Source of the DNA: a virus
Virus record (IMG/VR): IMGVR_UViG_3300026532_000002
Location: 1-40,441 of that record
DNA: 40,441 nucleotides
Direction: 5' to 3' (one strand)
Part shown: one piece after another, positions 1,730 to 37,972 of the stretch
Layout of the letters: the number at the start of each line of letters is the position of its first letter
How positions within the stretch are numbered: the stretch's first letter is position 1
The notes under the pieces: model-generated
What the model saw: only the letters and a program-made list of their open reading frames with translations
Databases searched by the model: none
Told to the model about the DNA's origin: nothing
Translations under genes and position numbers: made by a program

Positions 1730-1989
1730 TCACATGCCGAAGGGTAAACCTGCACCCCGCCGGACCACGGAATCCGTCGGGGCCTATTGCCCCAGAAGTG
1801 CAAGCACACGGGCCGGGGTTCATCCCGGCTGTGGGCATCGAAGCGGATATCGAGCGCATTCTTGACGACACCCTCTGGGCCGAGTGTAAAAATCGGCGCT
1901 GTCAAGAGGGCATCGAGCTGATACACGGCGTCGAGCACGCCGTTCATCAGATTGTCGCGCTCATTCAGGCACAGAGGGGCGCCCAATGA
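1726..1989 (+). CDS. Hypothetical protein
   Basis: ATG 1726 overlaps stop 1727-1729. Its stop 1987-1989 overlaps ATG 1986. Preferred over the antisense ORF 1624..1998 because of this double coupling. Confidence 0.5.
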   Translation: MITCRRVNLHPAGPRNPSGPIAPEVQAHGPGFIPAVGIEADIERILDDTLWAECKNRRCQEGIELIHGVEHAVHQIVALIQAQRGAQ

Positions 1990-3749
1990 CCCTGACACCT
2001 GCCGCTTTCATGTCCGCCGCACCGGCGCCGCTCAACGGCTCCTCGCCCTGGGCAGCGCGCTACGCGAGCGAGCTCCGCCGCGTAGTCACCGAGCACGCCG
2101 CCCGGACGCCGCGGACCCTTCAGCGCCACCTCGGCCCGTCCGAACTCGGCGTGGAATGCGATCGGCAGGTGGTAGGCAAAATGGCTGGCCAGCCGACCAC
2201 GAATCACATCGCGGACCCGTGGCCGAGCGTTGTAGGAACCGCAGTGCACGCCTGGTTGGCAGACGCGTTCACCGCGGACAACACCCGGCACGGTGTGCTG
2301 CGGTGGGTGGCGGAGCAGCGCGTCACCCCGCACCCGAATCACCCCGGTACCGCCGACCTGTACGACGCCGCCGAGCAGGCGGTGGTGGACCACAAGGTGC
2401 TCGGCGAATCGAGCCTGACCAAGGTCCAATCACTGCGGGGACCGCCGCGTAAATACGTGGTGCAGTTGTTACTCTACGGACTCGGTTACCGCAACCTCGG
2501 TTTACCCGTGCGGCGGGTCGCGCTGGCCGCGTACCCCCGCACTCAAGCTTCCCTTGACGGTCTTTACGTCTGGGATCGCGAATATTCCCCAGCGGACGAC
2601 GAATTACTACGGGAAGTGTTTCACCAAACTGATTATCGCCAGCAATGGGCCAATCGGGTCATTTCCGGTCAACTTGATATCAAACAGATCCCCCGGACAC
2701 CCAGCCACGATGAGTGCTATTTCTGTTTAGCGGGGGAAACCGAGGTTGTGACGCGCGACGGCATCCGACCGATCCGCGAACTGGCCGGCACAACACACAA
2801 CCTATTGGTTCCGTCAGCACGGCCAAACGGGGCACGTGGTCAGTTCGTCTCGGTCCCTGTACGCGTATTCGGTGTACAACGCCTATCCGCCGTTCACCTA
2901 CGGCGGTACCGGGCGACGAAGACGATCTACGCCACACCGGAACATCGGTGGATTACAGCCGACGGAGCGGTGGTGACTACGGCCGAATTGCAGACTGGTG
3001 TCCAACTCGCCTCGGTTCGGGCTGAACCCACTCGCGGGGCCCGTCCGATCAGCGCTGCCATCGCTCAGGGATTCACCTACGGCGACGGCGCACGGGGTAT
3101 CAATCGTCGGCCAGCCACACTTGCGATCTACAGACGTAGTCACAAGCGCGCGTTACTGCCTCACTTCGGCCCGATCGAGGTGCGGGAGTACGCCACACCA
3201 GACGGCGACACCGTAGACCATATCTACGGCCTGCCGCGTTTCTGGAAAGCACTACCGCCGCTCGACGAATCACGCTCGTTTCTGCTTAGTTGGCTAATCG
3301 GTTACTTTGCCGCTGATGGGTCCGTTACTGAAGCCGGACAATGTGAACTCAGTAGCGCCAACAGGGAATCGTTGCTGTTTGTGCGTGATCTCGCCGCAGC
3401 GTGTGGGATCGGTTACGGCAGTATCGCAACCAGATCGCGTTTCGGTAAAAACACTAAACCAACTGATCTGTACACAATTGGGCTGAACGCCCGCGATTTG
3501 CCTGATTGGTTCTGGATTCTGCCGCACCACAGACAACGCGTCGCTGAACGCGTAGAAAAAGCGGAAAGAATAACCCACTGGTCCGTCGTCGACATTAAAC
3601 CAACTAATCGAATTGAGGAGGTCTACTGCGCGACCGTCCCTGGTATAGGAGCGTTCGCACTCGTTGATGGACTCACCACCGGTAACTGCCCATTTTATCG
3701 GCCAGATGCGCACGACGGTGGACCGGGGTGCCCAGGAACAACCACATGA
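1986..3749 (+). CDS. Cas4/RecB-family PD-(D/E)XK exonuclease precursor, interrupted by an intein
   Basis: Nuclease motifs GTAVHAWL, ADLYD, VVDHK and QLLLYG (QxxxY). N-terminal Cys (VECDR) plus C-terminal ECYFC / CPFYR...GCPG cysteines. A 321-aa in-frame insert carries intein blocks. Confidence 0.8.
   Translation: MTLTPAAFMSAAPAPLNGSSPWAARYASELRRVVTEHAARTPRTLQRHLGPSELGVECDRQVVGKMAGQPTTNHIADPWPSVVGTAVHAWLADAFTADNTRHGVLRWVAEQRVTPHPNHPGTADLYDAAEQAVVDHKVLGESSLTKVQSLRGPPRKYVVQLLLYGLGYRNLGLPVRRVALAAYPRTQASLDGLYVWDREYSPADDELLREVFHQTDYRQQWANRVISGQLDIKQIPRTPSHDECYFCLAGETEVVTRDGIRPIRELAGTTHNLLVPSARPNGARGQFVSVPVRVFGVQRLSAVHLRRYRATKTIYATPEHRWITADGAVVTTAELQTGVQLASVRAEPTRGARPISAAIAQGFTYGDGARGINRRPATLAIYRRSHKRALLPHFGPIEVREYATPDGDTVDHIYGLPRFWKALPPLDESRSFLLSWLIGYFAADGSVTEAGQCELSSANRESLLFVRDLAAACGIGYGSIATRSRFGKNTKPTDLYTIGLNARDLPDWFWILPHHRQRVAERVEKAERITHWSVVDIKPTNRIEEVYCATVPGIGAFALVDGLTTGNCPFYRPDAHDGGPGCPGTTT
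2724..3686 (+). mobile_element. Intein (321 aa) with a double-motif LAGLIDADG homing-endonuclease domain
   Basis: Begins CLAGETEVVTRDG (block A) and has TPEHRW (block B). Two LAGLIDADG-like motifs: IAQGFTYGDGA and LIGYFAADGSV. Ends VYCATV...LVDGLTTGN followed by +1 Cys (CPFY). G+C is visibly lower in the endonuclease part. Confidence 0.85.
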
Positions 3750-3764
3750 AAGTGACTATTCATC

Positions 3765-4583
3765 GTGACATATCCACAGATGCCTCAAGCGCCACAGAGT
3801 TACCAGCAATTTCCTCAGGGTTATCCGACTACACCACCTCAGAATTACCCGCAGCAATTCCCTCAGCAATTCCCTCAGGATTACACACAGGCGCCCGCGC
3901 AGCCGCTACCTCAAGGAAACCTGTCGGACTTTTTCGGCCAGCCTTCAGTCAGTGGCGGTCCCTCGTGGTCCTTCAAAGACAAGCCGGTTGGACAGTCTTA
4001 CGCGGGAATCGTTGAGCGTGCGCTCACCAACGCTGACATTGAACCGCAGACTATCCCCGGCACCAACCGGCCAGCGACGTACCGCGACGGCCGCCAGAAG
4101 TGGGTGATGAAGGTCCCCATGTTGGTGCAAGCTGATACTGATCACCCCGACGGTAAAGCCACCTGGTATGTCAGCGGGCAATCTCGGGACGAGCTCGTGC
4201 GTGCAATGGCCGAAGCTGGCGCACCCGAAGGGGCTCCGGAGCCCGGCGCGTTTATTGGCGTCCAGCTAGTTGGGCGCAAGCCCAGCAAAACGCCGGGGTT
4301 CAGCCCCAGCAATCAGGTTCGTGTCGTCTACCGACGGCCGGAGGGTGCCGCAGCACCCACAGCTACGCCCGTCGCTGAGCAACCTGCACAGCCTGCCCCG
4401 CCGGCGCAGCAACCGTCGGCGTTCACCGAATTAGCCCAACAGCAAAGCATCGTCCCCGCACAGGTGTCACCGGAACCCGCGCAGCACCCTCCGGCCGCTC
4501 CGGCGCCTCAACCGCCAGCCGGGCTCTCCGCTGAGCAGCAGGCCCTGTTGGCCCGAATGACCGGGACGGCCCCCACGAGCTGA
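3765..4583 (+). CDS. Hypothetical protein with a Pro/Gln-rich N-terminus and Pro/Ala-rich C-terminus; possible DNA-binding role from its position
   Basis: 272-aa ORF with GTG 3765 or ATG 3780. Repeats QQFPQGYP, QQFPQQFPQDY. Sits between the exonuclease and helicase genes. No catalytic motif recognised. Confidence 0.5.
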   Translation: MTYPQMPQAPQSYQQFPQGYPTTPPQNYPQQFPQQFPQDYTQAPAQPLPQGNLSDFFGQPSVSGGPSWSFKDKPVGQSYAGIVERALTNADIEPQTIPGTNRPATYRDGRQKWVMKVPMLVQADTDHPDGKATWYVSGQSRDELVRAMAEAGAPEGAPEPGAFIGVQLVGRKPSKTPGFSPSNQVRVVYRRPEGAAAPTATPVAEQPAQPAPPAQQPSAFTELAQQQSIVPAQVSPEPAQHPPAAPAPQPPAGLSAEQQALLARMTGTAPTS

Positions 4584-4588
4584 ATCCT

Positions 4589-4627
4589 GCCCGCGGACCC
4601 GTCCGGCACATGGACGGGTCCGCGGGC
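4589..4627 (+). terminator. 16-bp perfect stem-loop between 3765..4583 and the helicase gene (terminator or attenuator candidate)
   Basis: gcccgcggacccgtcc / 7-nt loop / ggacgggtccgcgggc, followed only by tt. Confidence 0.35.
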
Positions 4628-4647
4628 TTACCGGAAGGGGCCCGCCG

Positions 4648-6414
4648 GTGGAGCCCACCATCGTTGGCGAACTGACCGCGGACGGCAGCCACATCGTGCT
4701 CATCGCTGCGGGTGACGATGCCGTGGCGATCGCGGGCGTGGCGCAACAGCTGCAATTCCTTACCCCGTTGGTCCAATCCAGCACCCCGCCCGGCGCGGTG
4801 GTGCTAGCGACAAGTTGGCCAGCGGTGGCACAACTAGCGCACACCTACGGCGCGGCGTGGCGCCCACAGCCACGGTTGCACGCCTGGATTAAGCGGGAGA
4901 CGCTGCGGCGCACACAGTTACCCGCGGAACTCACCGCGCCGGTTCCCGAGGGGCTCACCCCGCGGCCCTATCAGGTGCGGGGCGCGCTGATGATCGCCTC
5001 TGTCGGGTCAGCGCTCATTACGGACGAACCCGGTACCGGTAAATCGGTCACCACGATCCTCGGGCTCAAAGAGATCGGATTGTCCGGCCCCGTTGTCGTG
5101 GTCGCCCCGGCCAGCGTGGTGGACCCGTGGGTTGAGCACTTCCGTACATGGGCACCGGAATGGCGCGCGGTCGCCTGGCGGGGCGCGCCGCAGCGGCGGT
5201 GCGCGCTTGCCGGTACCGCGGATGTTTACGTGGTCAGTTACGACACCGCCCGTATGGACGCGCAGGCCGACAGGGGTCCTCACGGTGGGCGGCGCGCGCT
5301 GCTCGACTTGTGCCCGGCCGCGGTGGTCGTGGACGAACACCATTTGATCAAGAGCCCCCACGCGGCCCGTTCCCACGCCGTGCGCCGATTGGCCAAGCAC
5401 GCCGGCACCGTCATTGCGCTCTCTGGGACGCCGATCACCCATCACCCGGCCGACCTGTGGTCCACCCTCGTCGCGCTGAATCACGACGCGTGGCCGTCCC
5501 GGGAGCGGTGGGTGCGGCGGTATTGCCTGACGGCGCTGAGTGACTACGGCGAACAGATCCTGGGGCTGAACCCTCACTACGAACCCGAGTTTCGTACCGC
5601 GCTGCTCGGCCAGCATCGCCGCGTCGCCAAGGCGGATGTGCTTGATCAGTTGCCGCCCAAGGTCTACAGCGTTCGAACGGTCGAAATGCCGGCGGCGTAT
5701 CGCAAGGCGTACGACCAGATGGAAACCGACATGCTCGCCGAACTGCCGGACGGCACCGAGCTATCGGTGATGTCGGTGTTAGCGCAACTGACCCGACTCT
5801 CACAACTGGCCTCGGCAGCGGCCGACGTTGAGGTGACGCACGAGCTCGGGGCGGACGGTGAGGAGCGGACGCACTACCACGTGACCCTCAAGGCGCCCAG
5901 CTGGAAAGTTGGCGCGCTGCTGGAGGTGCTCGACGAGCGGCCCGGTGAACCGGTGGTGGCGTTCGCGCCGTCCCGTCAGCTCATGCGACTGGCGGGCGCG
6001 CTCGCGGAAAAGGCCGGCTACCACGTCGGCTACATCGTCGGCGGGCAAACGATGGCCGAACGCACCGCCACGATCGCGGCATTCCAGGCAGGCAAACTAG
6101 ACCTGATCTGCGCGACCACGGGTGCTGGCGGGGTGGGAATCACGCTCACCGCGGCGCGCACGGTGGTGTTCCTCCAGCGTCCGTGGTCGTTGGTCGAGGC
6201 GCTCCAGGCTGAAGATCGACTTCATCGAATCGGCGCGGAAAAGCACGATTCGATCGAAGTGATCGACATTGTTGCCGCTAACACCATCGACACCAGAGTG
6301 CGGGCCGTACTCCGCGAAAAGGCCGGGCAACTGGCCGACCTCGTCCAAGACAAACGGATCGTTGCCGAGCTGCTCGGCGGAGCGTCGGTCAAGAAGCTAA
6401 GGAAGGCGTCATAA
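4648..6414 (+). CDS. SNF2/Rad54-family (SF2) helicase
   Basis: Motif I DEPGTGKS, motif II VVDEHH, motif III LSGTP, motif VI QAEDRLHRIG. RBS ggaagggg 7 nt before GTG 4648. Confidence 0.85.
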   Translation: MEPTIVGELTADGSHIVLIAAGDDAVAIAGVAQQLQFLTPLVQSSTPPGAVVLATSWPAVAQLAHTYGAAWRPQPRLHAWIKRETLRRTQLPAELTAPVPEGLTPRPYQVRGALMIASVGSALITDEPGTGKSVTTILGLKEIGLSGPVVVVAPASVVDPWVEHFRTWAPEWRAVAWRGAPQRRCALAGTADVYVVSYDTARMDAQADRGPHGGRRALLDLCPAAVVVDEHHLIKSPHAARSHAVRRLAKHAGTVIALSGTPITHHPADLWSTLVALNHDAWPSRERWVRRYCLTALSDYGEQILGLNPHYEPEFRTALLGQHRRVAKADVLDQLPPKVYSVRTVEMPAAYRKAYDQMETDMLAELPDGTELSVMSVLAQLTRLSQLASAAADVEVTHELGADGEERTHYHVTLKAPSWKVGALLEVLDERPGEPVVAFAPSRQLMRLAGALAEKAGYHVGYIVGGQTMAERTATIAAFQAGKLDLICATTGAGGVGITLTAARTVVFLQRPWSLVEALQAEDRLHRIGAEKHDSIEVIDIVAANTIDTRVRAVLREKAGQLADLVQDKRIVAELLGGASVKKLRKAS

Positions 6415-6896
6415 TGAGTAAATGCCACACGCTCGTTATCGGTGTTGATCCCGGGGGCACGACCGGAATAGGCGTCTTAAACTATATCCACCGGTGTGAC
6501 ACTCCAGAGATAGTGGACATAGCCCAGTGTAGCCCGGGAATTACTTTGCAATTAGTGGCCGCTCTGATGGCGTGGAACGTACCCACCGTACTTGCGGTGG
6601 AATCGTTCGTTGTTGGACCGCGCGCATATCGCTCAGCCACACCACAAGCAGGGCAGACGGCACGAGAAATCATTCACGCGTTGTCTATGCAAGCGGAAGA
6701 ACTATCTTATGTGCGCTTTATTCAGCGCCCCGCTGGCACAGTCAAGCCCTGGGCGACAGATAAGCGCCTGGATGCCGCCGGACTGCTCGATCGCACCAAA
6801 GGCATGCCTCACGCCCGGGACGCCTTGCGCCATGCCTTGTTCGCCGCGGTGCGGGATTGCGGCGTAACCGACCCACTGAGCCGAGAGGCGTCATGA
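6414..6896 (+). CDS. RuvC-like Holliday-junction resolvase
   Basis: RNase-H-fold start VIGVDPGGTTGIGVL, later acidic VESF, C-terminal HARDAL. ATG 6414 overlaps the helicase stop. Confidence 0.7.
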   Translation: MSKCHTLVIGVDPGGTTGIGVLNYIHRCDTPEIVDIAQCSPGITLQLVAALMAWNVPTVLAVESFVVGPRAYRSATPQAGQTAREIIHALSMQAEELSYVRFIQRPAGTVKPWATDKRLDAAGLLDRTKGMPHARDALRHALFAAVRDCGVTDPLSREAS

Positions 6897-9800
6897 CCGC
6901 TGCCGAGGCCGGCATGGGCTCTCTGTCCGAGCACCACCGGCACATGCTATGTGTGGAATCGGGACTGTCCGCGCAAACAGTAACCCAACGCGGATACCGC
7001 ACCGTGCGGGGCACTGACGGCTCAGCCGAACTCGCCACGCTGGGTTTCAATCTTGCGCAGGCGCGCACGGCTGAGCGGGGTGACGCGTTGCTGGTGCCGC
7101 TGTACGACACCACCGGCGCCGTCGTCAGCCACCAAATCCGCCCGGACGTGCCCCGGCTATCTCAGGGCAACCCGATCAAGTACGAGACACCGGCGCACGT
7201 GGGCAATCGCGTGGACGTGCCGCCGGCGGGGCGTGACGTGGTCATGGACGGCACGTCCCCGCTGTGGGTGACGGAGGGGGCTAAGACCGCCGACGCACTC
7301 GCCCAGGCCGGCGCCGGCGTGCTCATGCTGTGCGGGGTCTGGGGGTTCATGGGCCGGAGTGCGCAAGGGATCGGGACGGCGGTGGTCGCCGATCTCGCCT
7401 ACGTGCCCATGGCCGGACGCACGGTGTACCTGGCCTATGACAGCGACGTTGTCACCAAAGAGAGCGTGCAGGCCGCTGAGCGGCGGTTGGCGGAGACTCT
7501 CAGCGGCCGCGGCGCCGCGGTGTTCACCGTACGGATCCCCAGCGGGTCAGGCGGTATCAAGCAGGGCGCCGATGACTTCCTAGCCGCTGGCGGCACGCTG
7601 GACGCGCTAGTGGCCACGGCCGCTGCGCCGACGGCGACCGACCCGCTCGGCGGCAAGTCACCCCAGCGCTACGCTTACGACCTTGTCGCGGACGGGCACG
7701 AGCTCGCGGTGGACACCACCGGCGCGTTCCTGTTGCGTCCTGTGGACGCGGCTGGATTGCCAGCCGGCCCGGCACGGCGGTACTCCCGCCTGGATCTACA
7801 GGACCGCACACTGAGCCTGGCCGGCGCACGGGGAGCGGTGACCCTGCCCCAATCCGCTGTGACGCACGCGGTATCCCGCCACAACGGTGACCACATTGAC
7901 CAGCGCGTGGGCTTGCCCCCATCGCACATCACCCGCGTACACGGTGTCACCTGGCTGGACATGGGCACTGGGGTCGGGCACGACGTGGTGCGCCTGAGCG
8001 CTGATGGTTGGGGGTACGCGTCGTGGTCCGACGTACCACTGTGGCTGGTGCGTGGTGACACCACGGTGGAACTCACGCCCCCGGCGTCTATTGAACAGCG
8101 CAGTTGGGAACCGCTACGCCGTTTGCTCGCGCTGGACGATGAGTCGTTCGCGGTGATCCGGGTCTGGCTGGTGGCGCTGCTGGTCACCGACCGCGTGCCG
8201 CTGTTGTGGTGGCGGGGTGCTGCTGGTGCTGGCAAGTCCACTCGGGCCGACCTCGTTAGCGCCGTATTGGGGTTGCCAGGATTGTCTGCCGCGCCGCTGA
8301 ACATGCAAGACGCTTACAGCAAACTACAGGAGTCTCCGTGGATGCAAATAGAGAACCTCGGAGCGCTGGACCCGGCGATGTCGGACCTGTGGTGCACAGC
8401 TATCGCAGACGGTGTGGTGTCCACCCGAATCCTGCACACCTCTCGCCAGGTTCGTGTCACTGGTAGGTGGACGGGTCAGGTCACGTCTGTCCGAGACGTT
8501 CCTGGTGCGCTGGACGACCTGATGTCCCGGGCGCTCACGGTGGACGTGCCGGTAGACACCACCCGCCGGCTGGCCGCGGACCTGCACGCGGAAATGCGCG
8601 AGCACGCTCCCCTCGTGCGCGGTGCGCTGCTTGACGACGCGGTGGCGGTACTACGGCGGTTCGCCGCTGGCGACCTGCGGACCGGTAGTTACCGGTTTCC
8701 CGCACTGACCGCGATCGCGCACGCGCTCGACGTGTGCGACGGGGTAGCGGGTATCCACGCCCATGCCCTAGGGGACGCGGCCAGCGAAACCACCGCGGAA
8801 CGCTCGGAAAACGACCCATGGGTTCGGTGGCTCGCCGATGAGACACGACGGTGCGGTGGCTGCTGGACCGCAACGGCAGCGGAGATCTTCGACGCCCAAC
8901 GTGCGCATCGGCGCTCGGTGACCGTTGCCCTTGCGGACGAGGTCGACCAGTGGCCGACCAGTGCCAAGCAGGTGGGCTGGTGGCTGCCGACGCGCGAAGG
9001 GCGTCTCCGTGCGTTGGGTGTCGAGTGGCGCAAGGGACGGCGTACGGCTGAGCGTCGTCCGCACGTGCTGCGTGTGCTCGGCGGAAACTCTGTCGTTCCT
9101 CCCAAGATCGAAGAAGAAACGACAGCCACTACGTCAGAACAAAACCCCAGGTCAACTAGGGTCTCTGACAACACTGACATTTCTGTCTTTAATCTTCAAA
9201 AAAGTTATAGAGATAAGAGTGAAGTGCAACCGTTAGATACACTAACGGTTGCACTTGGAGATAAGCAGGGGGGTATATACGGTGACGCCGATTTGGCGTC
9301 AGAAACGCCGGGAACGACAGAGACCCTAGTTGACCTGGGAGTTTGCGCTGACAAACCACAAACGGGCATTGTCATCCGCCCCGAGGGGAACGTCAGTGCC
9401 CATCGGTGCTCTCGCTTGGAGCGCCGGGGCGACCCCACCCCATGTTCTCTAAACGATACACGGGAAGGTCTTGTGGCTGTCGTGCGCGCCGAGGGTGCGC
9501 TCACGGTGGACGTGGAGACCACGGGCTACCCCGTCGGTCATGCCGACTATGCCCTGCGCACGGTACAGCTGGGGGGCGCTACGTGCGCGTGGGTGTTTGA
9601 CGTGCGTGACGGGGAGGGAGCCCACGAGGTGCGCGCGTTGGTGCGTGACTTCCTCGCGGTCGTCCCCAAGCTGCACGCTCACTCGGCTACCGCCGATCTC
9701 GTGCCGCTAGCGCACGCGGGGCTGATAGACCACGAGTCCGGCTGGCAACGGATGTTCGACACCGTCATCCCCGCCAAGCTTGCCGATCCGCAGAGCACGG

Positions 9801-11221
9801 GCTCAGGCCCTGGGCTTAAGGCCCTCGCGGGCGCCGTGCTGGGGGAGCAGGCTACGGCCCCGGCGGCTGATGAGGCGCGTGCCGCGCTGTTCAAGCGCAA
9901 CAAGTGGGTGACCAACACTAAGGTCACGACAGCGGTGGAGCGCTCTGGTTGGGCGCAGGTCGATCCCGCAGATTCGGTCATGTTGCGCTACGCCGCGTCT
10001 GACGTGCTGGACACTGCGGTGCTCGCTCAGCGCTTGCCGTGGCCGGACGCTGCGCTGCTGGAGCGCGAGCGGGTTACCCAGCGGATGACTGCCCGGGTGG
10101 CGTACCGCGGGTTGCGGGTGGACGCCGACCACGTGGCCGCTAAGCGCACCGAGCACACCGACGCGCAAGCTGTGGCCGCCGAGCGCGTGCGGGCGGCTGG
10201 TGTGGCCGATCCCGGCAGCAACAAACAGGTCGGTGAGAAGTTGGCTCAGCTGGGCGCCAGCCTGCCTCGTACCGCCAGGGGTGCACCGTCAGTCGCGGAA
10301 GGTGCGATAGAGCCGCTACGGGCCGATCAGGGCGCGGTCGGCGAGCTGGTGCGCGCGGTGCTCGACTACCGTCACCACACCAAGGCTCTCTCGGCATTCT
10401 TGGAGCCCTACGCGCAGTTGTGTGCGCGCGGGGACGGCCGAGTACGCCCGACCATTTACACTCTTGCCGCGGACACCGGCAGAATGTCCTGTGTCCGTCT
10501 CAACCTCCAACAGGTCCCGCGAGAGGGTGGTTTCCGGGCGTGCATTACCGCGGATCCTGGGCATGTGCTGATCAGCGCTGACTTTTCCGGCGTGGAGATC
10601 CGGGGCGCTGCGGCGTTGTCTCAAGACGCCACGCTGATCAAGCTGATTGCAGAGGAAGACGCCGGCCGTAGTGATGGGCTGCACTGGCTCATTGCTCGTC
10701 AGGTGTTCGGTCCGGACGCTACTAAGGCGGATCGGTACACCGCGAAGCGGGTCGTGTTCGGCCGGCTCTACGGCGGAGCCATCGCCACGCTAGCCAAACA
10801 GGCTGGCACGTCCGAGTTGGTGGTGGCGTCCGCTATTGACGTTCTGGACGCGACCACGCCGCAACTCACCCAGTGGTCCCACGCTATCCGCAACGCCGTG
10901 AAGGCTGGTAGTACCCAGTTCCCCACCTATTCGGGCCGGACCATCCACCTGCCGCGGGAATACCCGCACAAGGGCCCGAACTACTGCATTCAGGGCACCT
11001 GCCGAGAGCTGCTCGTGGACGCGCTGACCCGCTGGCGTGACACCAAGTGGGGAGATTGCACGATCCTGCCAGTGCACGACGAGATCGTGGCCATGGTGCC
11101 CGAGGCGGACGCCGACGAGGCAACTGCCGAGCTCGTGGCGTGTATGCGGGGCAATTTGCATGGCGTGCCAATTATGGCGGAGGCCAGTGCGCCGTCATTC
11201 GCGTGGGCCGATTCGGTGTAG
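6893..11221 (+). CDS. Fusion protein: Toprim (DUF3854-like) primase, P-loop NTPase, 3'-5' exonuclease and family-A DNA polymerase
   Basis: Toprim VTEGAKTADAL and YLAYDSDVV. Walker A GAAGAGKST. Exo motifs LTVDVETTG, HSATADL, YAASD. Pol motif A DFSGVEIRGAA, motif B RYTAKRVVFGRLYGG, motif C PVHDEIV. One uninterrupted frame; ATG 6893 overlaps the RuvC stop (ATGA). Confidence 0.85.
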   Translation: MTAAEAGMGSLSEHHRHMLCVESGLSAQTVTQRGYRTVRGTDGSAELATLGFNLAQARTAERGDALLVPLYDTTGAVVSHQIRPDVPRLSQGNPIKYETPAHVGNRVDVPPAGRDVVMDGTSPLWVTEGAKTADALAQAGAGVLMLCGVWGFMGRSAQGIGTAVVADLAYVPMAGRTVYLAYDSDVVTKESVQAAERRLAETLSGRGAAVFTVRIPSGSGGIKQGADDFLAAGGTLDALVATAAAPTATDPLGGKSPQRYAYDLVADGHELAVDTTGAFLLRPVDAAGLPAGPARRYSRLDLQDRTLSLAGARGAVTLPQSAVTHAVSRHNGDHIDQRVGLPPSHITRVHGVTWLDMGTGVGHDVVRLSADGWGYASWSDVPLWLVRGDTTVELTPPASIEQRSWEPLRRLLALDDESFAVIRVWLVALLVTDRVPLLWWRGAAGAGKSTRADLVSAVLGLPGLSAAPLNMQDAYSKLQESPWMQIENLGALDPAMSDLWCTAIADGVVSTRILHTSRQVRVTGRWTGQVTSVRDVPGALDDLMSRALTVDVPVDTTRRLAADLHAEMREHAPLVRGALLDDAVAVLRRFAAGDLRTGSYRFPALTAIAHALDVCDGVAGIHAHALGDAASETTAERSENDPWVRWLADETRRCGGCWTATAAEIFDAQRAHRRSVTVALADEVDQWPTSAKQVGWWLPTREGRLRALGVEWRKGRRTAERRPHVLRVLGGNSVVPPKIEEETTATTSEQNPRSTRVSDNTDISVFNLQKSYRDKSEVQPLDTLTVALGDKQGGIYGDADLASETPGTTETLVDLGVCADKPQTGIVIRPEGNVSAHRCSRLERRGDPTPCSLNDTREGLVAVVRAEGALTVDVETTGYPVGHADYALRTVQLGGATCAWVFDVRDGEGAHEVRALVRDFLAVVPKLHAHSATADLVPLAHAGLIDHESGWQRMFDTVIPAKLADPQSTGSGPGLKALAGAVLGEQATAPAADEARAALFKRNKWVTNTKVTTAVERSGWAQVDPADSVMLRYAASDVLDTAVLAQRLPWPDAALLERERVTQRMTARVAYRGLRVDADHVAAKRTEHTDAQAVAAERVRAAGVADPGSNKQVGEKLAQLGASLPRTARGAPSVAEGAIEPLRADQGAVGELVRAVLDYRHHTKALSAFLEPYAQLCARGDGRVRPTIYTLAADTGRMSCVRLNLQQVPREGGFRACITADPGHVLISADFSGVEIRGAAALSQDATLIKLIAEEDAGRSDGLHWLIARQVFGPDATKADRYTAKRVVFGRLYGGAIATLAKQAGTSELVVASAIDVLDATTPQLTQWSHAIRNAVKAGSTQFPTYSGRTIHLPREYPHKGPNYCIQGTCRELLVDALTRWRDTKWGDCTILPVHDEIVAMVPEADADEATAELVACMRGNLHGVPIMAEASAPSFAWADSV
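9146..9339. other. Low-G+C structured element inside the polymerase-fusion linker (candidate intragenic origin or cis-acting RNA/DNA structure)
   Basis: 22-bp perfect inverted repeat 9146-9167 / 9318-9339. It encloses an A/T-rich tract, a 15-bp hairpin (9222-9256) flanked by direct GAGATAAG 8-mers (9210-9217, 9258-9265), and a 7-bp hairpin (9283-9301). Confidence 0.6.
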
Positions 11222-11232
11222 GAGGGATCCCA

Positions 11233-11880
11233 ATGGCTGTCTGTCTCATTTGCGAAGACCAAGATGCCATGCACCGGTACGTGTGCTATGGCTGCACCAA
11301 CCGAATGCGCCGCCAGCTGCGCGAACTGGAGACCTATGCCGCGATTCTCGCCGTGACCGTCGCGCCGTTGCACGGCGGATCAGGCCGGCGCGCACCTGGT
11401 TACGATAGTCGTAGCCCCGCTAGGGACGACGTGATCGTGATGCTCGATTGGCGAACCCGAACCGACTCCTGCGGTGACGATGACGATGACAGCCCCATCT
11501 GGTCTCTCCTCGGCACTCTCCACGGGTTATCCATCTACATCGCCGGTCAGCTTGGTCACACCGAACCGATGCGCATCACGATGACCGTCGTGACGGCGTA
11601 TCTCTTGGCGGTGGTGGACCGCTGCGCGTTAGAGAAGTGGGTTGTGGACGTTGCCGCCGACATCCACGACTTACACACCCAAGCTCGCGCATTGGCGCAC
11701 GATTGCCCACCTCGCCCACTTGGTGCGTGCCTCGGGGTGGGTTGTGGTGGAGCTGTTTATCCCGCCATTTTGCGAGATCAGCGTGGCGAGCACGAGGGAG
11801 CACGGTGCAGCAGGTGTTTGCGTGCGTACGACGGTCTCGATCTTGCTAGGCTCGGGGCGCAGGAGGTGACGGCACGGTGA
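11233..11880 (+). CDS. Hypothetical Cys-rich (zinc-ribbon-like) protein
   Basis: RBS ggaggg 6 nt before ATG 11233. N-terminal CLICEDQ...CYGC and C-terminal CLGVGCGG...CSRC cysteine pairs. Confidence 0.55.
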   Translation: MAVCLICEDQDAMHRYVCYGCTNRMRRQLRELETYAAILAVTVAPLHGGSGRRAPGYDSRSPARDDVIVMLDWRTRTDSCGDDDDDSPIWSLLGTLHGLSIYIAGQLGHTEPMRITMTVVTAYLLAVVDRCALEKWVVDVAADIHDLHTQARALAHDCPPRPLGACLGVGCGGAVYPAILRDQRGEHEGARCSRCLRAYDGLDLARLGAQEVTAR

Positions 11881-12071
11881 AGCGTGTACCTGCTTGGGTA
11901 GTACTGGAGATCCTGCGGCAGGAAGCCGATAAGACGGGGGACAACCGATATCGTGTCACCGGTGGTGCCCTTCGGAATTGGGTGTGGCGTGGGCACGTCA
12001 CCCGCGGCTCAGGTGGGTACGACCTCACGGAGATACTTGCCTATCTTCAGAGCCGCAGTGTGGCGGCTTGA
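11877..12071 (+). CDS. Small helix-turn-helix DNA-binding protein
   Basis: GTG 11877 overlaps the preceding TGA (GTGA). 64 aa with winged-HTH-like LRNWVWRGHV. Last gene of the early operon. Confidence 0.5.
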   Translation: MKRVPAWVVLEILRQEADKTGDNRYRVTGGALRNWVWRGHVTRGSGGYDLTEILAYLQSRSVAA

Positions 12072-16749: not shown

Positions 16750-17084
16750 GAGACCCGGAAAGGGCGCTTGTGATGTCCCTGTCCCGTGAAGAGGCCGCGC
16801 GCCGCCTCGGCATGAAGGTTGCCGAGGTGGTCAAAGTGGAAGAGGGTCCGGCCGGCACGTGGGCCACCACCCATGACGGCGTGCGCACCCTACTCGCTAC
16901 TGTCGAGCCGGCCGCCGAGCTCGAGCCGGCTGACGAGGTGCCGGACGGTGCTGTTGGCGAGGTGCTCACCTGGGTTGGCGACGACTCAGCGCGTGCACGT
17001 GCCGCGCTGAAGGTGGAACAGGCCAAGCCCAAGCCCCGGACCGGGCTGGTTTTTGACCTGCGGAAACTGGCAGGTTCGGCATGA
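16746..17084 (+). CDS. Hypothetical head-module protein
   Basis: GTGA overlap with the portal gene and ATGA overlap with the capsid fusion gene. Confidence 0.5.
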   Translation: MRDPERALVMSLSREEAARRLGMKVAEVVKVEEGPAGTWATTHDGVRTLLATVEPAAELEPADEVPDGAVGEVLTWVGDDSARARAALKVEQAKPKPRTGLVFDLRKLAGSA

Positions 17085-19486
17085 CGGCCCCAGCGGCTGT
17101 GGTGTGCCCGGCCTGCGGTCACCAGTTCATCCCGGATGCCGGGGCGACACGGGCCACCGAGGCTGTCGAGGCTGACAACCCGAAAAAGCCCTACGGCGAC
17201 GTCAACTATGCGGACCCGGGATACCAGAAGGACGGCAAGGCCCGGTATCCGCTGGACACTGAGCAGCACGTTCGGGCCGCGTGGTCCTATATCAACCAGT
17301 CCGACAATGCCGCCCAGTACACCTCGGACCAGCTCAAGAACATCAAGGGGCGGATCCGGGCGGCAGCCAAGCGGTTCGGCATCGCTATCGCTGATCAGGC
17401 CACCGAAGCGGGTACGGTGACCGATTCTGACCGGCTGGCCGGTCGGGTCATTGAAGCCAAAGGCACTGGTAGCGATGGTGGGCGGATCTTCCGGGTGCGG
17501 GTCATCGCTTACGGTGACAGTAAGAACGCCAGACGCTATCCCGAAGCGGTGATGCGCGCCGCGGCGCCGCTGTATGAGGGCGTCAAGGCATATGACCACC
17601 ACCGCGCCGAGGGCGAATTGCGGTCTTCCACGATCAGCGGCCTCGTGGGCTACTACCGCAATGCCGAGGCCACCGGCGACGGGATCGAGGCCGACTTGCA
17701 TCTGCTCCCATCGGCCACCCGTGCCGCCGAGGCACTAGATACGAGCCTGACTATTCAGGGCGAGGGCTTGTCTCCGCTGGTGGGGATCAGTCACGACGTG
17801 ATGGCGATGTACCGGCCGATCGTGGCTGGCGGGCAACGGCTGCAAGAGGCCACCGCCATCGTGAAAGTTAATTCCGCCGACATCGTTGCCGATCCGGCCG
17901 CTGGTGGTCAGGCCACCCGCATGGTTGCCGGTGGCACGGAGATTACTGAGACCGACCCGGCGAGTGTCCGGGACGAGAGCACAAAGGAGTCCGACGTGAC
18001 TATCACGACCGCGGACGTGCTCGCCGCGTTCAAGGATGCCGACGATGACGCGCTCGCCGCGGTCGGCCTGCGCAAGGTGAGTGAGTCCACCACAACGACT
18101 GAGCCGTCCGCCGCTTCCGCAGTGGACTCAGCGCCTGTTGGGGGTGAGCCGAGCACCGAGAGCACTGGGACAGCGAAGGCATCGTTTATGGGCAAGTTCA
18201 TGATCCGCCAGATGGTTGCCGACGCCGGGTTGCCCGAGTCCGCCGTTGAGGCGGTGACCGCGCTGCTGCCGGAACAGGTCACCGAGGCTGATCTGTCCAC
18301 GCAGATCGCCGCGCTGAAGACAAGCCTGGGCTTGGTCGAGCGCACCGGGTTGACCCCTACGAACACTGCGGCGGTCACCCGAGAGGCGGTGGATAAGAAA
18401 CGCGATGCGCTAGATGCGTTCTTTGCGGGTGACTACGTTAACGGTTACCGGTCGTTCCGGGAGGCGTTTGCCGACTTCACCGGCCGTCGGCCGAAGTCCT
18501 TTGACGAGGACTACAACCGCGTCATCCTGCGCGAGTCACTCGGCGAGTACGATTCGGGCGTTACCCGGTCCACGGAAAGTATGGACTCTACTACCTGGAA
18601 CCTTGTACTCGGGGACAGTATTACTCGGCGCATGGTGGCCGAGTACGTTCAACCGTCTTTGCAGACGTGGCGGCAGGTCGTGAGCTCTACCCCGCCGGTC
18701 AATGACTTCCGTATTCAGCGGATTGAGCGCGTCGGCGGTTACGGCGTGCTGCCCGCAGTTAACCAGGGGGCGCCGTATCAGCCGCTCACGTCACCGACCA
18801 ACGAGGAAGTCACCTACACGGTCACCAAACGCGGTGGGACGGAAGACATCACACTGGAGATGATCGCCAACGATGACATCCGGGCTATCCAGCGCATTCC
18901 CGGCAAGCTCGGTCTAGCCGCGGCGCAGACTCTCTACCGGTTCGTCTGGGACATCCTGCCCACCAACGCAGCCACGTCTTACGACGCAACCGCGCTGTTC
19001 GCAGTTGGCCACGCCAACACGGACAACCCGGCCGTGCTCGGCCAGTCGACGCTGTCGGTTGGGCGGCGCAAGATGCGCAAGCAGACAGCCTACGGCGATT
19101 CAAGCGACGTGCTGTCGTTTACACCGCGCGTTCTCGTGGTGCCCCCCGACCTGGAGGAAATCGCGTTTCAGCTGGCGACATCGGCTGTGGCGATTCCGTC
19201 CACGCCGGCCGGTCCGACCGATACGCCGAACATCCACCAAGGTCTTCAGGTCATCGTCGTGGACTACTACTCGGATACGAATGATTGGTATCTGGTGTGT
19301 GACCCGGCGATGTGCCCAACGATCGAGGTCGGTTTCTATCAGGGCCGCCAAGATCCGGAACTGTTCACCCAATCTGACCCGAGCGTGGGTAGCGTGTTCA
19401 ACGCCGATAAAGTTACATATAAGATTCGGCATATTTACAGCGGAACCGTGTTGGATCACCGGGGTTTCTACCGTGGCTCCAACTGA
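17081..19486 (+). CDS. Scaffold/protease-like domain fused to an HK97-fold major capsid protein
   Basis: 801 aa. N-terminal CPACG ribbon and the YADPGYQKDGKARYPLDT..HVRAAWSYI motif. Acidic Ala/Thr-rich middle. C-terminal ~300 aa resemble a major capsid protein (NQGAPYQPLTS...TYTVTKRGG...LVVPPDLE...). No separate protease, scaffold or capsid ORF exists. Confidence 0.7.
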   Translation: MTAPAAVVCPACGHQFIPDAGATRATEAVEADNPKKPYGDVNYADPGYQKDGKARYPLDTEQHVRAAWSYINQSDNAAQYTSDQLKNIKGRIRAAAKRFGIAIADQATEAGTVTDSDRLAGRVIEAKGTGSDGGRIFRVRVIAYGDSKNARRYPEAVMRAAAPLYEGVKAYDHHRAEGELRSSTISGLVGYYRNAEATGDGIEADLHLLPSATRAAEALDTSLTIQGEGLSPLVGISHDVMAMYRPIVAGGQRLQEATAIVKVNSADIVADPAAGGQATRMVAGGTEITETDPASVRDESTKESDVTITTADVLAAFKDADDDALAAVGLRKVSESTTTTEPSAASAVDSAPVGGEPSTESTGTAKASFMGKFMIRQMVADAGLPESAVEAVTALLPEQVTEADLSTQIAALKTSLGLVERTGLTPTNTAAVTREAVDKKRDALDAFFAGDYVNGYRSFREAFADFTGRRPKSFDEDYNRVILRESLGEYDSGVTRSTESMDSTTWNLVLGDSITRRMVAEYVQPSLQTWRQVVSSTPPVNDFRIQRIERVGGYGVLPAVNQGAPYQPLTSPTNEEVTYTVTKRGGTEDITLEMIANDDIRAIQRIPGKLGLAAAQTLYRFVWDILPTNAATSYDATALFAVGHANTDNPAVLGQSTLSVGRRKMRKQTAYGDSSDVLSFTPRVLVVPPDLEEIAFQLATSAVAIPSTPAGPTDTPNIHQGLQVIVVDYYSDTNDWYLVCDPAMCPTIEVGFYQGRQDPELFTQSDPSVGSVFNADKVTYKIRHIYSGTVLDHRGFYRGSN

Positions 19487-30766: not shown

Positions 30767-31563
30767 TGGGTTTCTTCTCCGGTGTGGGCGAGTAGGTGAG
30801 CGAGTGCGGCGCCCATGCCGAGCACGGCCACCGGCACGCACGCCACCACGGTGGTGATCTGCCACGGCGCGGCGTGCATGCCGGCCGCGACCATGAGGTG
30901 GTAGGCGACCTGCCCGAGCGCGCCCAAGCCCAGCGAACCCAGGGCGGAGACCCGGGCGTAGACCCGGGTCCGGGTGGACTCGACCCGGCCCGAGAGCCAC
31001 ACCCACAGGGCGTACGCGGCGTAGGTCTCCATACCGATCGGCAGCGTGATAGCCGTGTTGATCACGACGTTTCCCGCGATCCCGGGGAGCGGGTGGACCG
31101 GGCCGAACCCGGCAAGCTCACCGAGTCCGACCCACCCGGACCAGATGGCCACGAAGGCAGGTAACGCCAGCAACATCAGCGGCCAGCGGGGCACGTGACG
31201 GTGGGGGTTCGGACCCGGACTCGGACCCGGACTCAGACCCGGGTTATGGGATCCCGTAACCGGTGTGACCTGCGGTCCCGCCTTGGCCGGCACGGTCGGT
31301 TCCGGGGCGTGCAGGCCCACCTCTGAGCTCGGGTCTGAGTCCGGGTCCGGGGTGGGCTTGGGGGTGGGTCCGGAGATCAACGCCAGCGCGTCAGACGCCT
31401 TGTCCGCGCCGACCCGAAAGCGCTTCATGATCTTGTTCCGGGACGGCAGCGAACCCTCTTCTTCAGCCCAGGTCCGGACCCGGTCCGCCAGATCCGAGAC
31501 CGGGATCGGATGCGCGGACCCGGGTTCGAACCCGGGCTTGACGCCGTTGCTCGCCGGGTTCAC
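30724..31563 (-). CDS. Polytopic membrane protein with a soluble N-terminal domain and Pro-rich linker (DUF2637-like?)
   Basis: GTG 31563 overlaps the upstream stop (GTGA). Pro-rich linker (PTPKPTPDPDSDP, PGLSPGPSPGPNP), then 4-5 hydrophobic helices. Confidence 0.6.
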   Translation of the reverse strand: MNPASNGVKPGFEPGSAHPIPVSDLADRVRTWAEEEGSLPSRNKIMKRFRVGADKASDALALISGPTPKPTPDPDSDPSSEVGLHAPEPTVPAKAGPQVTPVTGSHNPGLSPGPSPGPNPHRHVPRWPLMLLALPAFVAIWSGWVGLGELAGFGPVHPLPGIAGNVVINTAITLPIGMETYAAYALWVWLSGRVESTRTRVYARVSALGSLGLGALGQVAYHLMVAAGMHAAPWQITTVVACVPVAVLGMGAALAHLLAHTGEETQHARRYRNASAPSR

Positions 31564-36730: not shown

Positions 36731-37972
36731 TCAGCCCGCGGTTTCCGCGTCCCTGCTACCGGCAGATCCCGGCGCCTTTCCGGACGGGTCTGCCCCACGG
36801 TCTGCCCCAGGCTGCCCCGCGGGCCCATCCACCGCCCGCAGCGGCGGGCGCTCGCCCAGCGCTGCCAGCGCCACCGCCCGCGCATCCTCACCCATCTGCA
36901 CATATCCCCGAGTCTCACGCACGTCCGCGTGGCCCATGATGTCCGCCAACAGAAACGCGTCCATCCCGCCGCGTGCGGCCCGCGTGCCGAAGCCCCGGCG
37001 GATGGAATACGCGGTGCGGCGCGGCACGCCGGCTCGATCAGCCGCGTACCTCAGCCGCCGGGCCAGCTCCTCCGGCCGCATCACCCTCCCCCGTTCGGTG
37101 CGAAACACCACATCGCCCGTGCACGCAGTACCGTCTGTGTGGGAAAGCCCACACCCCTGGGTAAGGTCCCGGCCTGCCAGGCGCCGCCGGACGATCTCAA
37201 TAGCTTTCGCGGATAACGGAACCGCGCGCGTATCAGCATCCTTAGGGTGTGGCCGAATGACCATCCGGCGCGCCACCAGCACCTCAACGACATGCAACCA
37301 TCCTGTTATCAGGTCTACCCGATGCACGTGTAACCCACACAACTCACCCGGCCGTAATCCAGTTTCTAAACCAAAATCCACCGCGTCTTGGTAATCGCCC
37401 CTAAGCTCGATATCTTCGGCGTATTCCTGTGTCATAAATTGTTTAGGCTTTTTTCGCACCCTCGGTAATTTAATCCCCACGCACGGGGACGCGTGCAATG
37501 GGCTTGGCACAGCACGATTCATACTGGCCGCAAATACCGCATAAATTCGGTGCACATACGACGCCTCAGGAAGTCGATCGCGCTCCCAACCGACTGCCTG
37601 ACCGGCGGTGAGATCGTTGGCCCAACGCTGCACATCAGGCTGCCTAATCTTATTGAGCGCTACCTCTCCCCACTGCGGTAAAAGGTAGCGCTCAATAACG
37701 TTGCGCTCAATAGCAGCCGTATCGGACTCGGTGAGCGTCCGAGTGGCAGCTAATTGCTCCCACCATTGTCCCCACGTGATGCTGGCTGAGAGGGTGCCGG
37801 CTGTTATGGCTGCCTCGCGGCGCGCTTTCACCGCGGCTTCCTCTGCGGCCTCGATCGCGTCCCGCTTGCGACGGAACAGGGAACCGTCGGCCTGGGTGAC
37901 CTTGCGTTTCGTGCCGGCCTGATCCCGGTAGCGACCGCGCCAGCCGGTGGCTAACTTCTCAGCCCACGCCAT
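36731..37972 (-). CDS. int: Tyrosine integrase
   Basis: TGLRPGELCGL (box I Arg) and IRRGFGT...MGHADVRETRGYV (His/Tyr box). RBS aaggagg before ATG 37972. Confidence 0.85.
   Translation of the reverse strand: MAWAEKLATGWRGRYRDQAGTKRKVTQADGSLFRRKRDAIEAAEEAAVKARREAAITAGTLSASITWGQWWEQLAATRTLTESDTAAIERNVIERYLLPQWGEVALNKIRQPDVQRWANDLTAGQAVGWERDRLPEASYVHRIYAVFAASMNRAVPSPLHASPCVGIKLPRVRKKPKQFMTQEYAEDIELRGDYQDAVDFGLETGLRPGELCGLHVHRVDLITGWLHVVEVLVARRMVIRPHPKDADTRAVPLSAKAIEIVRRRLAGRDLTQGCGLSHTDGTACTGDVVFRTERGRVMRPEELARRLRYAADRAGVPRRTAYSIRRGFGTRAARGGMDAFLLADIMGHADVRETRGYVQMGEDARAVALAALGERPPLRAVDGPAGQPGADRGADPSGKAPGSAGSRDAETAG

Follow-up and report, generated by a model that had tools for sequence, protein, structure and literature searches.

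A predicted fused primase, helicase and DNA polymerase from an uncultured phage, with a candidate replication origin in its linker codons

The IMG/VR virus record IMGVR_UViG_3300026532_000002 comprises 40,441 nucleotides, and the whole of this stretch is referred to here as the window. Its + strand carries one open reading frame (ORF) of 1442 codons in which a DnaG-like primase core, a helicase, a 3'-5' proofreading exonuclease (exo) and a family-A DNA polymerase (PolA) follow each other without interruption. The codons joining the helicase to the exonuclease are AT-rich and palindromic. Taken as a whole, we favor, with some reservation, the reading that the gene is a fused replicase with a replication origin encoded in its linker. 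The coordinates of the features are collected in Table 1.

The frame is open from possible starts at 6857 (TTG) and 6893 (ATG) to 11221. The ATG shares the tetranucleotide ATGA with the TGA of the upstream ORF and is preceded by GAGAGG, making 6893 a credible start. Nine ~40.4-kb contigs of JGI and ENA samples are on record with the identical 1442-aa protein, a cluster look-up adding Logan as a source, and three contigs fetched from different samples showed 0 mismatches to the window across the 4329-nt gene. The offset and orientation of the gene differed among the ~40.4-kb contigs, indicating a circularly permuted or circular, complete genome. One uninterrupted frame is also retained in the homologs P0001-3 (59-62% identity), in P0296, P0155, P0063 and P0007, in Pas55 of Actinoplanes phage phiAsp2, and in ~60 clusters of fusions having an archaeo-eukaryotic primase (AEP). 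An earlier reading of this DNA, made from sequence only, had placed four modules in a single 1442-aa frame at 6893-11221. The ORF listing, the three identical assemblies and the homologs bear out the frame, and all of the motifs quoted for the modules were found, with the catalytic motifs intact. We therefore regard a functional fused replicase as highly probable. The gene would be carried by a temperate soil phage that is probably an actinophage; independent assemblies of the ~40.4-kb genome from at least 9 samples point to a recurrent soil phage (L073-L075).

Annotation with Pfam profiles matched DUF3854, DNA_pol_A and, below its cut-off, DNA_pol_A_exo1, and left the central module without a match. 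The DUF3854 match spans aa 117-234 (E = 1.4e-14) and includes the motifs VTEGAK (aa 126-131) and YLAYDSD (aa 179-185). The acidic Toprim residues E128, D183/D185 and D227/D228 are invariant across 21-24 homologs. An AlphaFold model (AF2) of aa 1-760 was built from 21 homologs with a predicted local distance difference test score (pLDDT) of 76 and was confident over aa 1-245 and aa 345-730, the primase core reaching ~95. Foldseek of the model against the PDB returned the RNA-polymerase domains of the DnaG proteins of M. tuberculosis, Aquifex, E. coli, S. aureus and B. subtilis (E = 5e-7 to 1e-5, TM 0.45-0.49). Bacterial DnaG carries a CHC2 zinc domain N-terminal to its RNA-polymerase domain. 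The window protein has none, as no zf-CHC2 was found in the Pfam scan and aa 1-117 hold no Cys/His cluster, H15 being the only conserved His of the N-terminal region. The profile and model are thus those of a predicted DnaG/Toprim-type N-terminal primase domain, as in Pas55-type replicases.

The central module was not recognized by Pfam as D5_N, DUF5906/Pox_D5 or any other family, even at E <= 10, and a profile search of the N-terminal half against PDB sequences returned P-loop matches to ABC transporters only, which were uninformative. Foldseek with the N-half model returned Cch of SCCmec (5dgk, E = 4e-7), as well as African swine fever virus (ASFV) PrimPol, monkeypox virus (MPXV) E5, vaccinia virus (VACV) D5 and NrS-1, and the structures of DnaB, T7 gp4 and Twinkle were missing from the best 50 PDB matches. 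HHalign of the family profile against the D5_N/DUF5906 modules of related fusions gave 93% probability and E = 3.4e-7 over 250 columns, the match extending to a C-terminal region with a conserved W-P motif (W687-P688). One relative, P0063, has a bridging architecture of DUF3854, D5_N, DUF5906, exo and PolA. Among homologs G442, G445, K448, N488, D498, D542 and R546 are invariant. Because the fold search and the profile-profile comparison agree, the central nucleoside triphosphatase (NTPase) is assigned, from sequence profiles and the model, to the D5/P4-type helicases of superfamily 3 (SF3) and not to the loaders.

The sequence-only reading had rightly noted a separate gene of the SNF2 family, which lies at 4648-6414, upstream of the replicase gene here and in all relatives. 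It had gone on to suggest for the central NTPase a possible role as initiator or loader in place of replicative helicase. SNF2 proteins are double-stranded DNA translocases that remodel or anneal and are not replicative fork-unwinding helicases, and the genome encodes no plausible replicative helicase other than the central SF3 module. With the SF3 fold matches and the HHalign result, the proposal of a loader in place of a helicase is not supported. Its initiator part may hold, since SF3 helicases commonly double as initiators. A candidate for the corresponding origin-binding domain is the region C-terminal to the helicase core. The AF2 model of aa 596-736 had a pLDDT of 81 and the topology H-E-H-H-H-H-E-E, and its Foldseek matches, none of them significant (best E = 0.32), were predominantly winged helix-turn-helix proteins, including Orc1/Cdc6 on origin DNA.

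The C-terminal half is readily recognized. PHROG 17, "DNA polymerase", matched aa 866-1441 (E = 1e-88), and Pfam DNA_pol_A matched aa 1090-1431 (E = 6e-43). DNA_pol_A_exo1 matched aa 858-1048 (E = 2.4e-4) at 21.4 bits, slightly below its gathering cut-off of 23.6 bits. The exonuclease motifs are nevertheless complete, with Exo I TVDVETTG (aa 871-878), Exo II HSATADL (aa 930-936) and Exo III YAASDVLD (aa 1033-1040) supplying D873/E875 (DxE), D935 and Y1033/D1037. Polymerase motif A, SADFSGVEIR (aa 1228-1237), contributes D1230; motif B, RYTAKRVVFGRLYGG (aa 1281-1295), R1281/K1285/F1289/Y1293; and motif C, PVHDEIV (aa 1393-1399), H1395-D1396-E1397. No 5'-3' exonuclease domain is present in the replicase. 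PDB sequence matches included Klenow (3e-19), the apicoplast polymerase (2e-18), Taq and Bst. The polymerase of phage D29 was matched at 29% identity (E = 4e-43), and among the matches listed the closest cultured-phage polymerases were of the D29 type or that of Microbacterium phage Zeta1847, at 29-31% identity. The PolA reclassification of Czernecki et al. 2023 (PMC10201439) places D29-like actinophage PolAs in cluster 9 with "no known partners", and mentions fusions to Toprim or AEP domains only for the Aquificae-like PolA subfamily and for PREX. The window polymerase shares the DxE motif with the D29-like subfamily but is fused.

Table 1. Features of the fused replicase gene and of its linker DNA in the window.
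Feature	Residues	Position	Strand	Basis or remark
Complete fused replicase ORF	1442 aa + TAG stop	6893..11221	+	Recurs in 3 independent assemblies
DnaG-like primase catalytic core (N-terminal subdomain + Toprim; Pfam DUF3854)	aa 1-245	6893..7627	+	Pfam, invariant residues, model, Foldseek
Low-confidence, probably flexible segment between primase and helicase	aa 248-341	7634..7915	+	pLDDT <50
SF3 (D5/P4-type) helicase core	aa ~345-600	7925..8692	+	Foldseek, HHalign, invariant residues
Walker A GAAGAGKST	aa 442-450	8216-8242	+	Motif search
Walker-B-like IEN		8339-8362	+	Motif search
Conserved D542/R546		8510-8536	+	Alignment
Helical and winged-helix-like C-terminal domain, W687-P688 conserved; candidate origin-binding	aa ~596-730	8678..9082	+	AF2 pLDDT 81
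Hypervariable inter-module linker	aa ~731-865	9083..9487	+	Unalignable, pLDDT ~30
AT-rich nested palindrome / short-repeat element within linker codons; candidate replication origin		9081..9352	.	
Perfect 22-bp inverted repeat		9146-9167 / 9318-9339		Repeat search
Perfect 15-bp hairpin		9222-9236 / 9242-9256		Repeat search
Perfect 12-nt pair		9088-9099 / 9311-9322		Repeat search
CTGNCGTT copies		9090(+), 9118(-), 9313(-); 9389(-) just beyond element		Motif search
Unique conserved motif AACCCCAGGTCA; partner TGACCTGG		9143; partner at 9331		Motif comparison
In-frame GTG, GGGAAGG four nt upstream; possible internal exo-Pol start, speculative	aa 861	9473..9475	+	Sequence inspection
3'-5' proofreading exonuclease domain	aa ~866-1060	9488..10072	+	Pfam, PHROG 17, motifs
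Family-A DNA polymerase domain	aa ~1061-1442	10073..11218	+	Pfam, PDB, D29 Pol match

Comparison with known systems identified one close precedent. A structure search of viral proteins in BFVD with the window N-half model found Pas55 (E = 6e-23), the 1415-aa product of 43304-47551 in phiAsp2 (NC_005885), which has the same modules in the same order in one polypeptide; its Pfam matches cover aa 108-210 for DUF3854 and aa 1109-1410 for DNA_pol_A. Kazlauskas, Krupovic & Venclovas 2016 (PMC4889955) described Pas55 as a fusion in which a DnaG primase, an SF3 helicase and PolA are joined. Like the window phage, which is probably of this kind, phiAsp2 is an actinobacterial phage, and the gene neighborhoods are similar: the module includes a RuvC-like gene, and a helicase gene precedes the fusion by a few genes. 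By BLASTP the two proteins are 30% identical over 197 aa in the primase (E = 1e-5) and 32% over 268 aa in the polymerase (E = 1e-25), with the helicase not detected. The window replicase thus has the Pas55-type architecture of primase, SF3 helicase, exo and PolA in one ORF, and is a very distant new member of an architecture known from one cultured phage. From the sequence comparison its fusion may have been re-assembled by module swapping, as its polymerase is far closer to those of the AEP-type fusions than to that of Pas55.

The sequence-only reading had cited PREX, the apicoplast polyprotein, as a comparable arrangement. This is a fair analogy, although the closer precedent of Pas55 was missed. 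The helicase of PREX is Twinkle/DnaB-like, of superfamily 4 (SF4), where that of the window is predicted to be SF3, and PREX is eukaryotic, organellar and thought to be processed. Its polymerase belongs to the Aquificae-like "Hot Spring 1" subfamily, while the window polymerase is closest to D29-type actinophage polymerases among the matches listed; the match to the apicoplast polymerase (E = 2e-18) was not better than that to Klenow (3e-19), and both compare with 4e-43 for the D29 polymerase. The window protein is thus analogous to PREX without being a member, as its helicase is of another class and its polymerase probably of another lineage. In PREX, the plastid replication-repair enzyme of Apicomplexa, a Toprim primase, helicase, 3'-5' exonuclease and PolA are contained in one polyprotein (PMC10201439). 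The N-half also resembles the gp-alpha protein of phage P4, in which a DnaG/Toprim-type domain and a helicase precede a C-terminal winged-helix origin-binding domain (PMC4889955), and CyRepA1/2, which combine DUF3854 with a helicase and are proven cyanobacterial plasmid replication initiators whose primase activity is untested (PMC10079941). Neither is fused to a polymerase, and the window protein is without their Pfam-level helicase signatures.

We examined how common the fusion is. Of 50,697 records of cultured phages, none aligned in a single place with 80% or more of the protein, the N-half was matched in only 6, and megablast of the gene and of window positions 1-25000 gave no match. The phage itself is accordingly missing from the GenBank phage collection. 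IMG/VR scans with the protein and the family alignment, which used primase-domain patterns only, likewise gave no match. Separate though adjacent genes encode primase and Pol I in the Streptomyces phages TG1, Rowa and AbbeyMikolon. The rarity that the sequence-only reading had expected was thus confirmed among cultured phages, but it does not extend to the uncultured lineage of the window, where the fused state is the norm. An exhaustive protein search covering 1.84 billion representatives revealed dozens of relatives of the exo-Pol half (45-69% identity) that form the C-terminal part of proteins of 1300-2150 aa. The exo module is 59-77% identical to that of closer relatives and 42-77% over all long relatives. 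The contexts of P0001-3 contain genes for the phage functions integrase, SNF2, terminase, portal, capsid and Lsr2.

The N-terminal parts of the exo-Pol relatives are unlike that of the window and consist of an AEP Prim-Pol, D5_N plus DUF5906, or both. These AEP-type fusions make up ~60 clusters at 50% identity, are known from metagenomes only, and have the synteny of the window, with SNF2 and small genes followed by the giant gene. Members such as P0035, P0036, P0038 and P0040 resemble the window in exo-Pol, synteny and an AT-rich linker. They differ in their unrelated primase type and only remotely related helicase (HHalign E = 3.4e-7), and many have inteins. Five of them (P0048, P0054, P0072, P0102 and P0105) have a gap of ~450 aa between the exo and Pol matches, which is probably an intein. 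The Pol module of the window is 58-69% identical to those of the closest AEP-type clusters and 61-77% identical to those of its own family. With the former as near as the latter, the primase-helicase half appears to have been exchanged while the fused state persisted. In P0300, of the 90% cluster of P0001, the Pol palm holds a 262-aa intein (Cys ... His-Asn / Cys) at the conserved PNY/CIQGT motif, corresponding to aa 1364/1365 and nt ~10985 of the window. An in-frame intein at this position argues that the long frame is translated.

More distant fusions exist. P0155 is an older relative with the window-type architecture, and in P0007 DUF3854 is fused to a PolA that is not linked by BLAST to the window Pol; the two suggest further, possibly independent, fusions. 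P0007 (1407 aa) is encoded at 3587-7810 of locus L006 (ENA ERZ27257321), with genes for a tyrosine integrase and HTH_17 as its neighbors; this fusion may have arisen independently, within a small integrative element. DUF3854 is common in metagenome-assembled genomes (MAGs) of soil bacteria as standalone proteins of ~750-950 aa, and it was fused to PolA in 0 of 63 genome loci examined.

Standalone polymerases of the window Pol clade also exist. In a Pseudonocardiaceae MAG (GCA_050699715.1), positions 7001-8890 of locus L077 encode a standalone PolA 62% identical to the window Pol half. It lies in a non-phage integrative element, in which a TrwC relaxase gene is followed by those for YAcAr, PolA, HTH_17 and a tyrosine integrase, indicating that the Pol clade moves between phages and conjugative or mobilisable elements. 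A further "standalone Pol" context, L078, resembles a fragmented long-read assembly and was not used.

Surveying relatives for split and fused versions, we found the close relatives to be fused. At locus L002 the replicase appears as two genes (854 + 578 aa), which were at first sight an evolved split. This was rejected, as both lie in the same frame with one TAA between them (8563-8565, JGI 3300060916), and P0296 (1452 aa), from the same cluster at 90% identity, has GAA (Glu) as this codon. One substitution, GAA to TAA, that separates a gene from its fused twin does not make an evolved two-gene form; the TAA is a nonsense polymorphism, if natural, and otherwise an error. Members of this family that are called "split" accordingly need to be checked at the DNA level. 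A true but distant split is found in Zeta1847, where the two halves, ~30% identical to the window, are separate genes with two small genes between them.

The DNA of the linker is anomalous, which the sequence-only reading had passed over. BLAST did not match the ~130-residue linker protein even to homologs with an overall identity of ~60%. The GC minimum of the whole window falls at 9081-9310 (0.39, the next lowest value being 0.44 and the genome mean 0.63), and at 39-41% GC the element lies well under every other genome segment, coding or non-coding. At aa 761-800 the GC content at third codon positions (GC3) is 0.30, against ~0.8 over the rest of the gene. The inverted repeats listed in Table 1 are nested around one centre. 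As single-stranded DNA the element folds at -64.9 kcal/mol (z = -9.55), with 0 of 200 shuffles equally stable. Four of the 16 genomic copies of CTGNCGTT fall inside 370 nt, where 0.15 would be expected. The palindrome arm has no further copy anywhere in the window, and a search of 8900-9600 against Rfam matched no family.

Comparison of ten fused genes, those of the window, L002-L006, the AEP-type loci L070, L072 and L080, and phiAsp2, revealed that the GC minimum of the gene falls in the helicase-exo linker in nine, phiAsp2 being the exception. The 12-nt motif AACCNCAGGTCA occurs exactly once per locus in the window, L002, L003 and L005, always within the linker. Its reading phase is 0 for the window and L002 (QNPRS) and 2 for L003 and L005 (EETPGQ / KETAGH), and its retention across two reading frames places the constraint on DNA or RNA and not on protein. 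In L002 the linker fold had z = -4.6; the outer arms are those of the window, and the inner arms differ but remain complementary.

Iterons specific to the locus mark the linkers of several relatives. All 9 locus copies of the L003 iteron CGGACGTT lie in the linker, as do 8 of the 11 copies of the L005 iteron, and every iteron is kept in register between the two loci. In L070 all 10 copies of GTGGAGGG are in the linker at 11-bp spacing in inverted arrays, the left block mostly on one strand and the right block on the opposite strand with the AT-rich minimum between them. L080 has a similar layout, with 7/7 copies of TGCCGAGG in the linker at 10-11-bp spacing. The L006 linker contains all copies of two iterons, GACGCTAA (5/5) and AGACGCAA (4/4), and the L072 linker has an AT-rich dip only. 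The iteron spacings are not divisible by three, and so the motifs do not reflect repeats in the peptide.

The above considerations led us to regard the element at 9081-9352 as a candidate replication origin, a reading of the sequence that we hold to be marginally better than an even bet. Origins within replication genes are familiar, as the P2 ori lies in gene A and SPP1 oriL in gene 38; ori and crr of P4 are located outside its alpha gene. In the lambdoid ori, iterons and an AT-rich region lie in the middle of gene O and are translated (PMC7466680), and an AT-rich region likewise lies inside the coding sequence of the window replication gene. The lambdoid case differs in that the O protein is unrelated and recruits the host helicase, and in that the window element lies between helicase and polymerase modules.

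Under this origin reading, the SF3 module would bind and melt the origin and assemble as a ring helicase, with the repeats perhaps recognized by its C-terminal winged-helix-like domain. The AT-rich centre would be melted, and wherever the repeat blocks are opposed in orientation, ring helicases would be loaded head to head; in relatives, two inverted arrays of 7-10 iterons lie on either side of an AT-rich centre, which would suit such loading of SF3 hexamers. The Toprim module would then prime the exposed single strands, and the tethered PolA would extend the primers and proofread, as a covalent analogue of T7 gp4 plus gp5 with no clamp needed. Primers would be removed by host functions or the phage exonuclease. 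That the ~270 bp of linker codons are an origin recognized by the protein they encode, and that an origin in the linker is general in a large group of uncultured actinobacterial phages and integrative elements, whose all-in-one replicases have interchangeable primase-helicase modules (Toprim/DUF3854 or AEP/D5), we put at even odds.

Several observations weigh against the origin and the mechanism built on it. The iterons of the window itself are weak, with 3-5 copies of CTGNCGTT and no 8-mer present in at least 4 copies. The cumulative GC-skew minimum lies near 4-5 kb and not at 9.2 kb; we judged the skew uninformative because nearly all genes share one orientation, and in this genome it probably tracks transcription. 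A tiled 200-nt hairpin z-score scan of 8 fused genes ranked the linker first only in the window and L070, and not in L002-L006 or L072, in a noisy scan with 12 shuffles; a universal linker hairpin is not claimed. Pas55 of phiAsp2 has the same architecture without a linker element. Its P/E/D-rich linker, with GC3 near 1.0, no AT-rich island and no repeats, also served as a negative control, indicating that disorder alone does not create the linker signal. The winged-helix assignment of aa 596-730 fell short of significance (best E = 0.32), and the missing zinc-binding domain makes primase activity uncertain. The inverted repeats could equally form RNA hairpins and have a role at the level of the mRNA. 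All enzymatic activities, the formation of hexamers, origin function and the choice of the domain that reads the repeats are predictions from sequence and models.

An RNA-level role would have the linker govern expression, such that the exo-Pol half is also made separately from the same ORF and the cell holds a primase-helicase, a polymerase and perhaps the fusion. This might occur through an internal promoter (TTGCAC-19 nt-TATATA, 9249-9279) with the GTG at 9473, through RNase III-type cleavage of the hairpin, or through ribosome pausing. The long hairpin would in principle fold equally as RNA, the in-frame GTG is preceded by the Shine-Dalgarno (SD)-like GGGAAGG, standalone PolAs exist in the window Pol clade, and the TAA variant at L002 keeps an intact downstream Pol frame, so the halves may work apart. 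However, the Pol start at L002 has no convincing SD, a sigma-70 consensus scan found no + strand promoter in 6000-12000 and the candidate has a 19-nt spacer, no Rfam family was matched, and the opposed 8-mer arrays of L070 and L080 (7-10 identical copies, 10-11-bp spacing, around an AT-rich core) are typical of protein sites on duplex DNA and not of signals for RNA processing. We consider this explanation unlikely. Still less likely is functionless filler, either a former intergenic spacer or a palindromic selfish insertion in frame. Palindromes can sit in frame inside genes, as do Rickettsia palindromic elements (RPEs), and an insertion resembling these or a miniature inverted-repeat transposable element (MITE) would fit the unconstrained linker protein and the lost codon bias. 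Against it, the palindrome arm is single-copy in the window and so not a multi-copy element, linker GC is far below that of all other genome segments, and lineages of ~60% protein identity, with two reading frames between them, retain the position, the AT-richness and the unique 12-nt motif. The iterons of L003 and L005 are all in register, and the unrelated fusions at L070, L080 and L006 have each evolved their own iteron set in the same place. Fusion by read-through of an intergenic origin, considered in this connection, was unsupported: the TG1 primase-Pol spacer is an ordinary terminator hairpin, and in Zeta1847 GC content does not dip between gp37 and gp40.

The remaining two alternatives concern the protein. 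That the P-loop module is only an initiator or loader, the fork being unwound by the separate SNF2 helicase (4648-6414), would agree with the SNF2-family gene just upstream in the window and all relatives and with the failure of Pfam to recognize the module. We hold this to be very improbable, because SNF2 enzymes translocate on duplex DNA, the Walker A, the Walker-B-like motif and the conserved Arg are invariant, and the fold and profile evidence is that of SF3 replicative helicases; fusions of primase and SF3 helicase are moreover the standard viral replicative helicase (PMC4889955). An artefactual or pseudogene-like join, from assembly error or a lost stop, might be suspected from the stop in the linker of the near-identical relative L002 and from the non-coding appearance of the linker composition. 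It is hardly credible, since the gene is identical in the three fetched assemblies and recorded on 9 contigs, the frame is kept across homologs and ~60 AEP-type clusters, ~130 linker codons stay open despite an AT-richness that favors stops, and one change, GAA to TAA, distinguishes the L002 stop from the P0296 codon.

The fused replicase is the common state of a large PolA clade known from metagenomes only, in which the primase-helicase half has been swapped and the polymerase kept, making the clade a clean natural example of modular replisome evolution. New beyond the Pas55 precedent are the scale of the clade, the primase-helicase swapping and the origin-like linker element. If the origin reading is true, one gene would hold initiator, helicase, primase, polymerase and origin as a compact, portable replicon. 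A minimal self-contained replicon could then be defined, which would be useful for minimal-replicon engineering in high-GC Actinobacteria, and predictions on how SF3-type phage helicases find origins would be testable.

Other genes of the window were also inspected. Between the SNF2 and replicase genes, the ORF at 6414-6896 (+) had been read earlier as RuvC. Its N-terminus, VIGVDPG, is RuvC-like by eye, but Pfam gave no confirmation, and its sole match was PHROG 1981, of unknown function (E = 3.5e-17). The ORF at 1986-3749 (+), of 587 aa, combines a PHROG 1674 exonuclease (aa 19-249) with LAGLIDADG_3 (aa 432-482) and represents a fusion to a homing endonuclease or else what is left of an intein; in relatives, LAGLIDADG or Hint domains lie within SNF2 genes (L070, L080) and a ThyX gene (L072). 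A tyrosine integrase with Phage_integrase and a SAM-like N-terminal domain is encoded at 36731-37972 (-), supporting a temperate lifestyle. The 801-aa product of 17081-19486 (+) joins DUF6582 to a Phage_capsid_4 major capsid domain. Clusters of repeated 8-mers at 28067-28352 and 30949-31516, in the structural-gene region (CGTGGCCA; CGGACCCG / CCGGGTCC), are probably coding repeats in tail genes.

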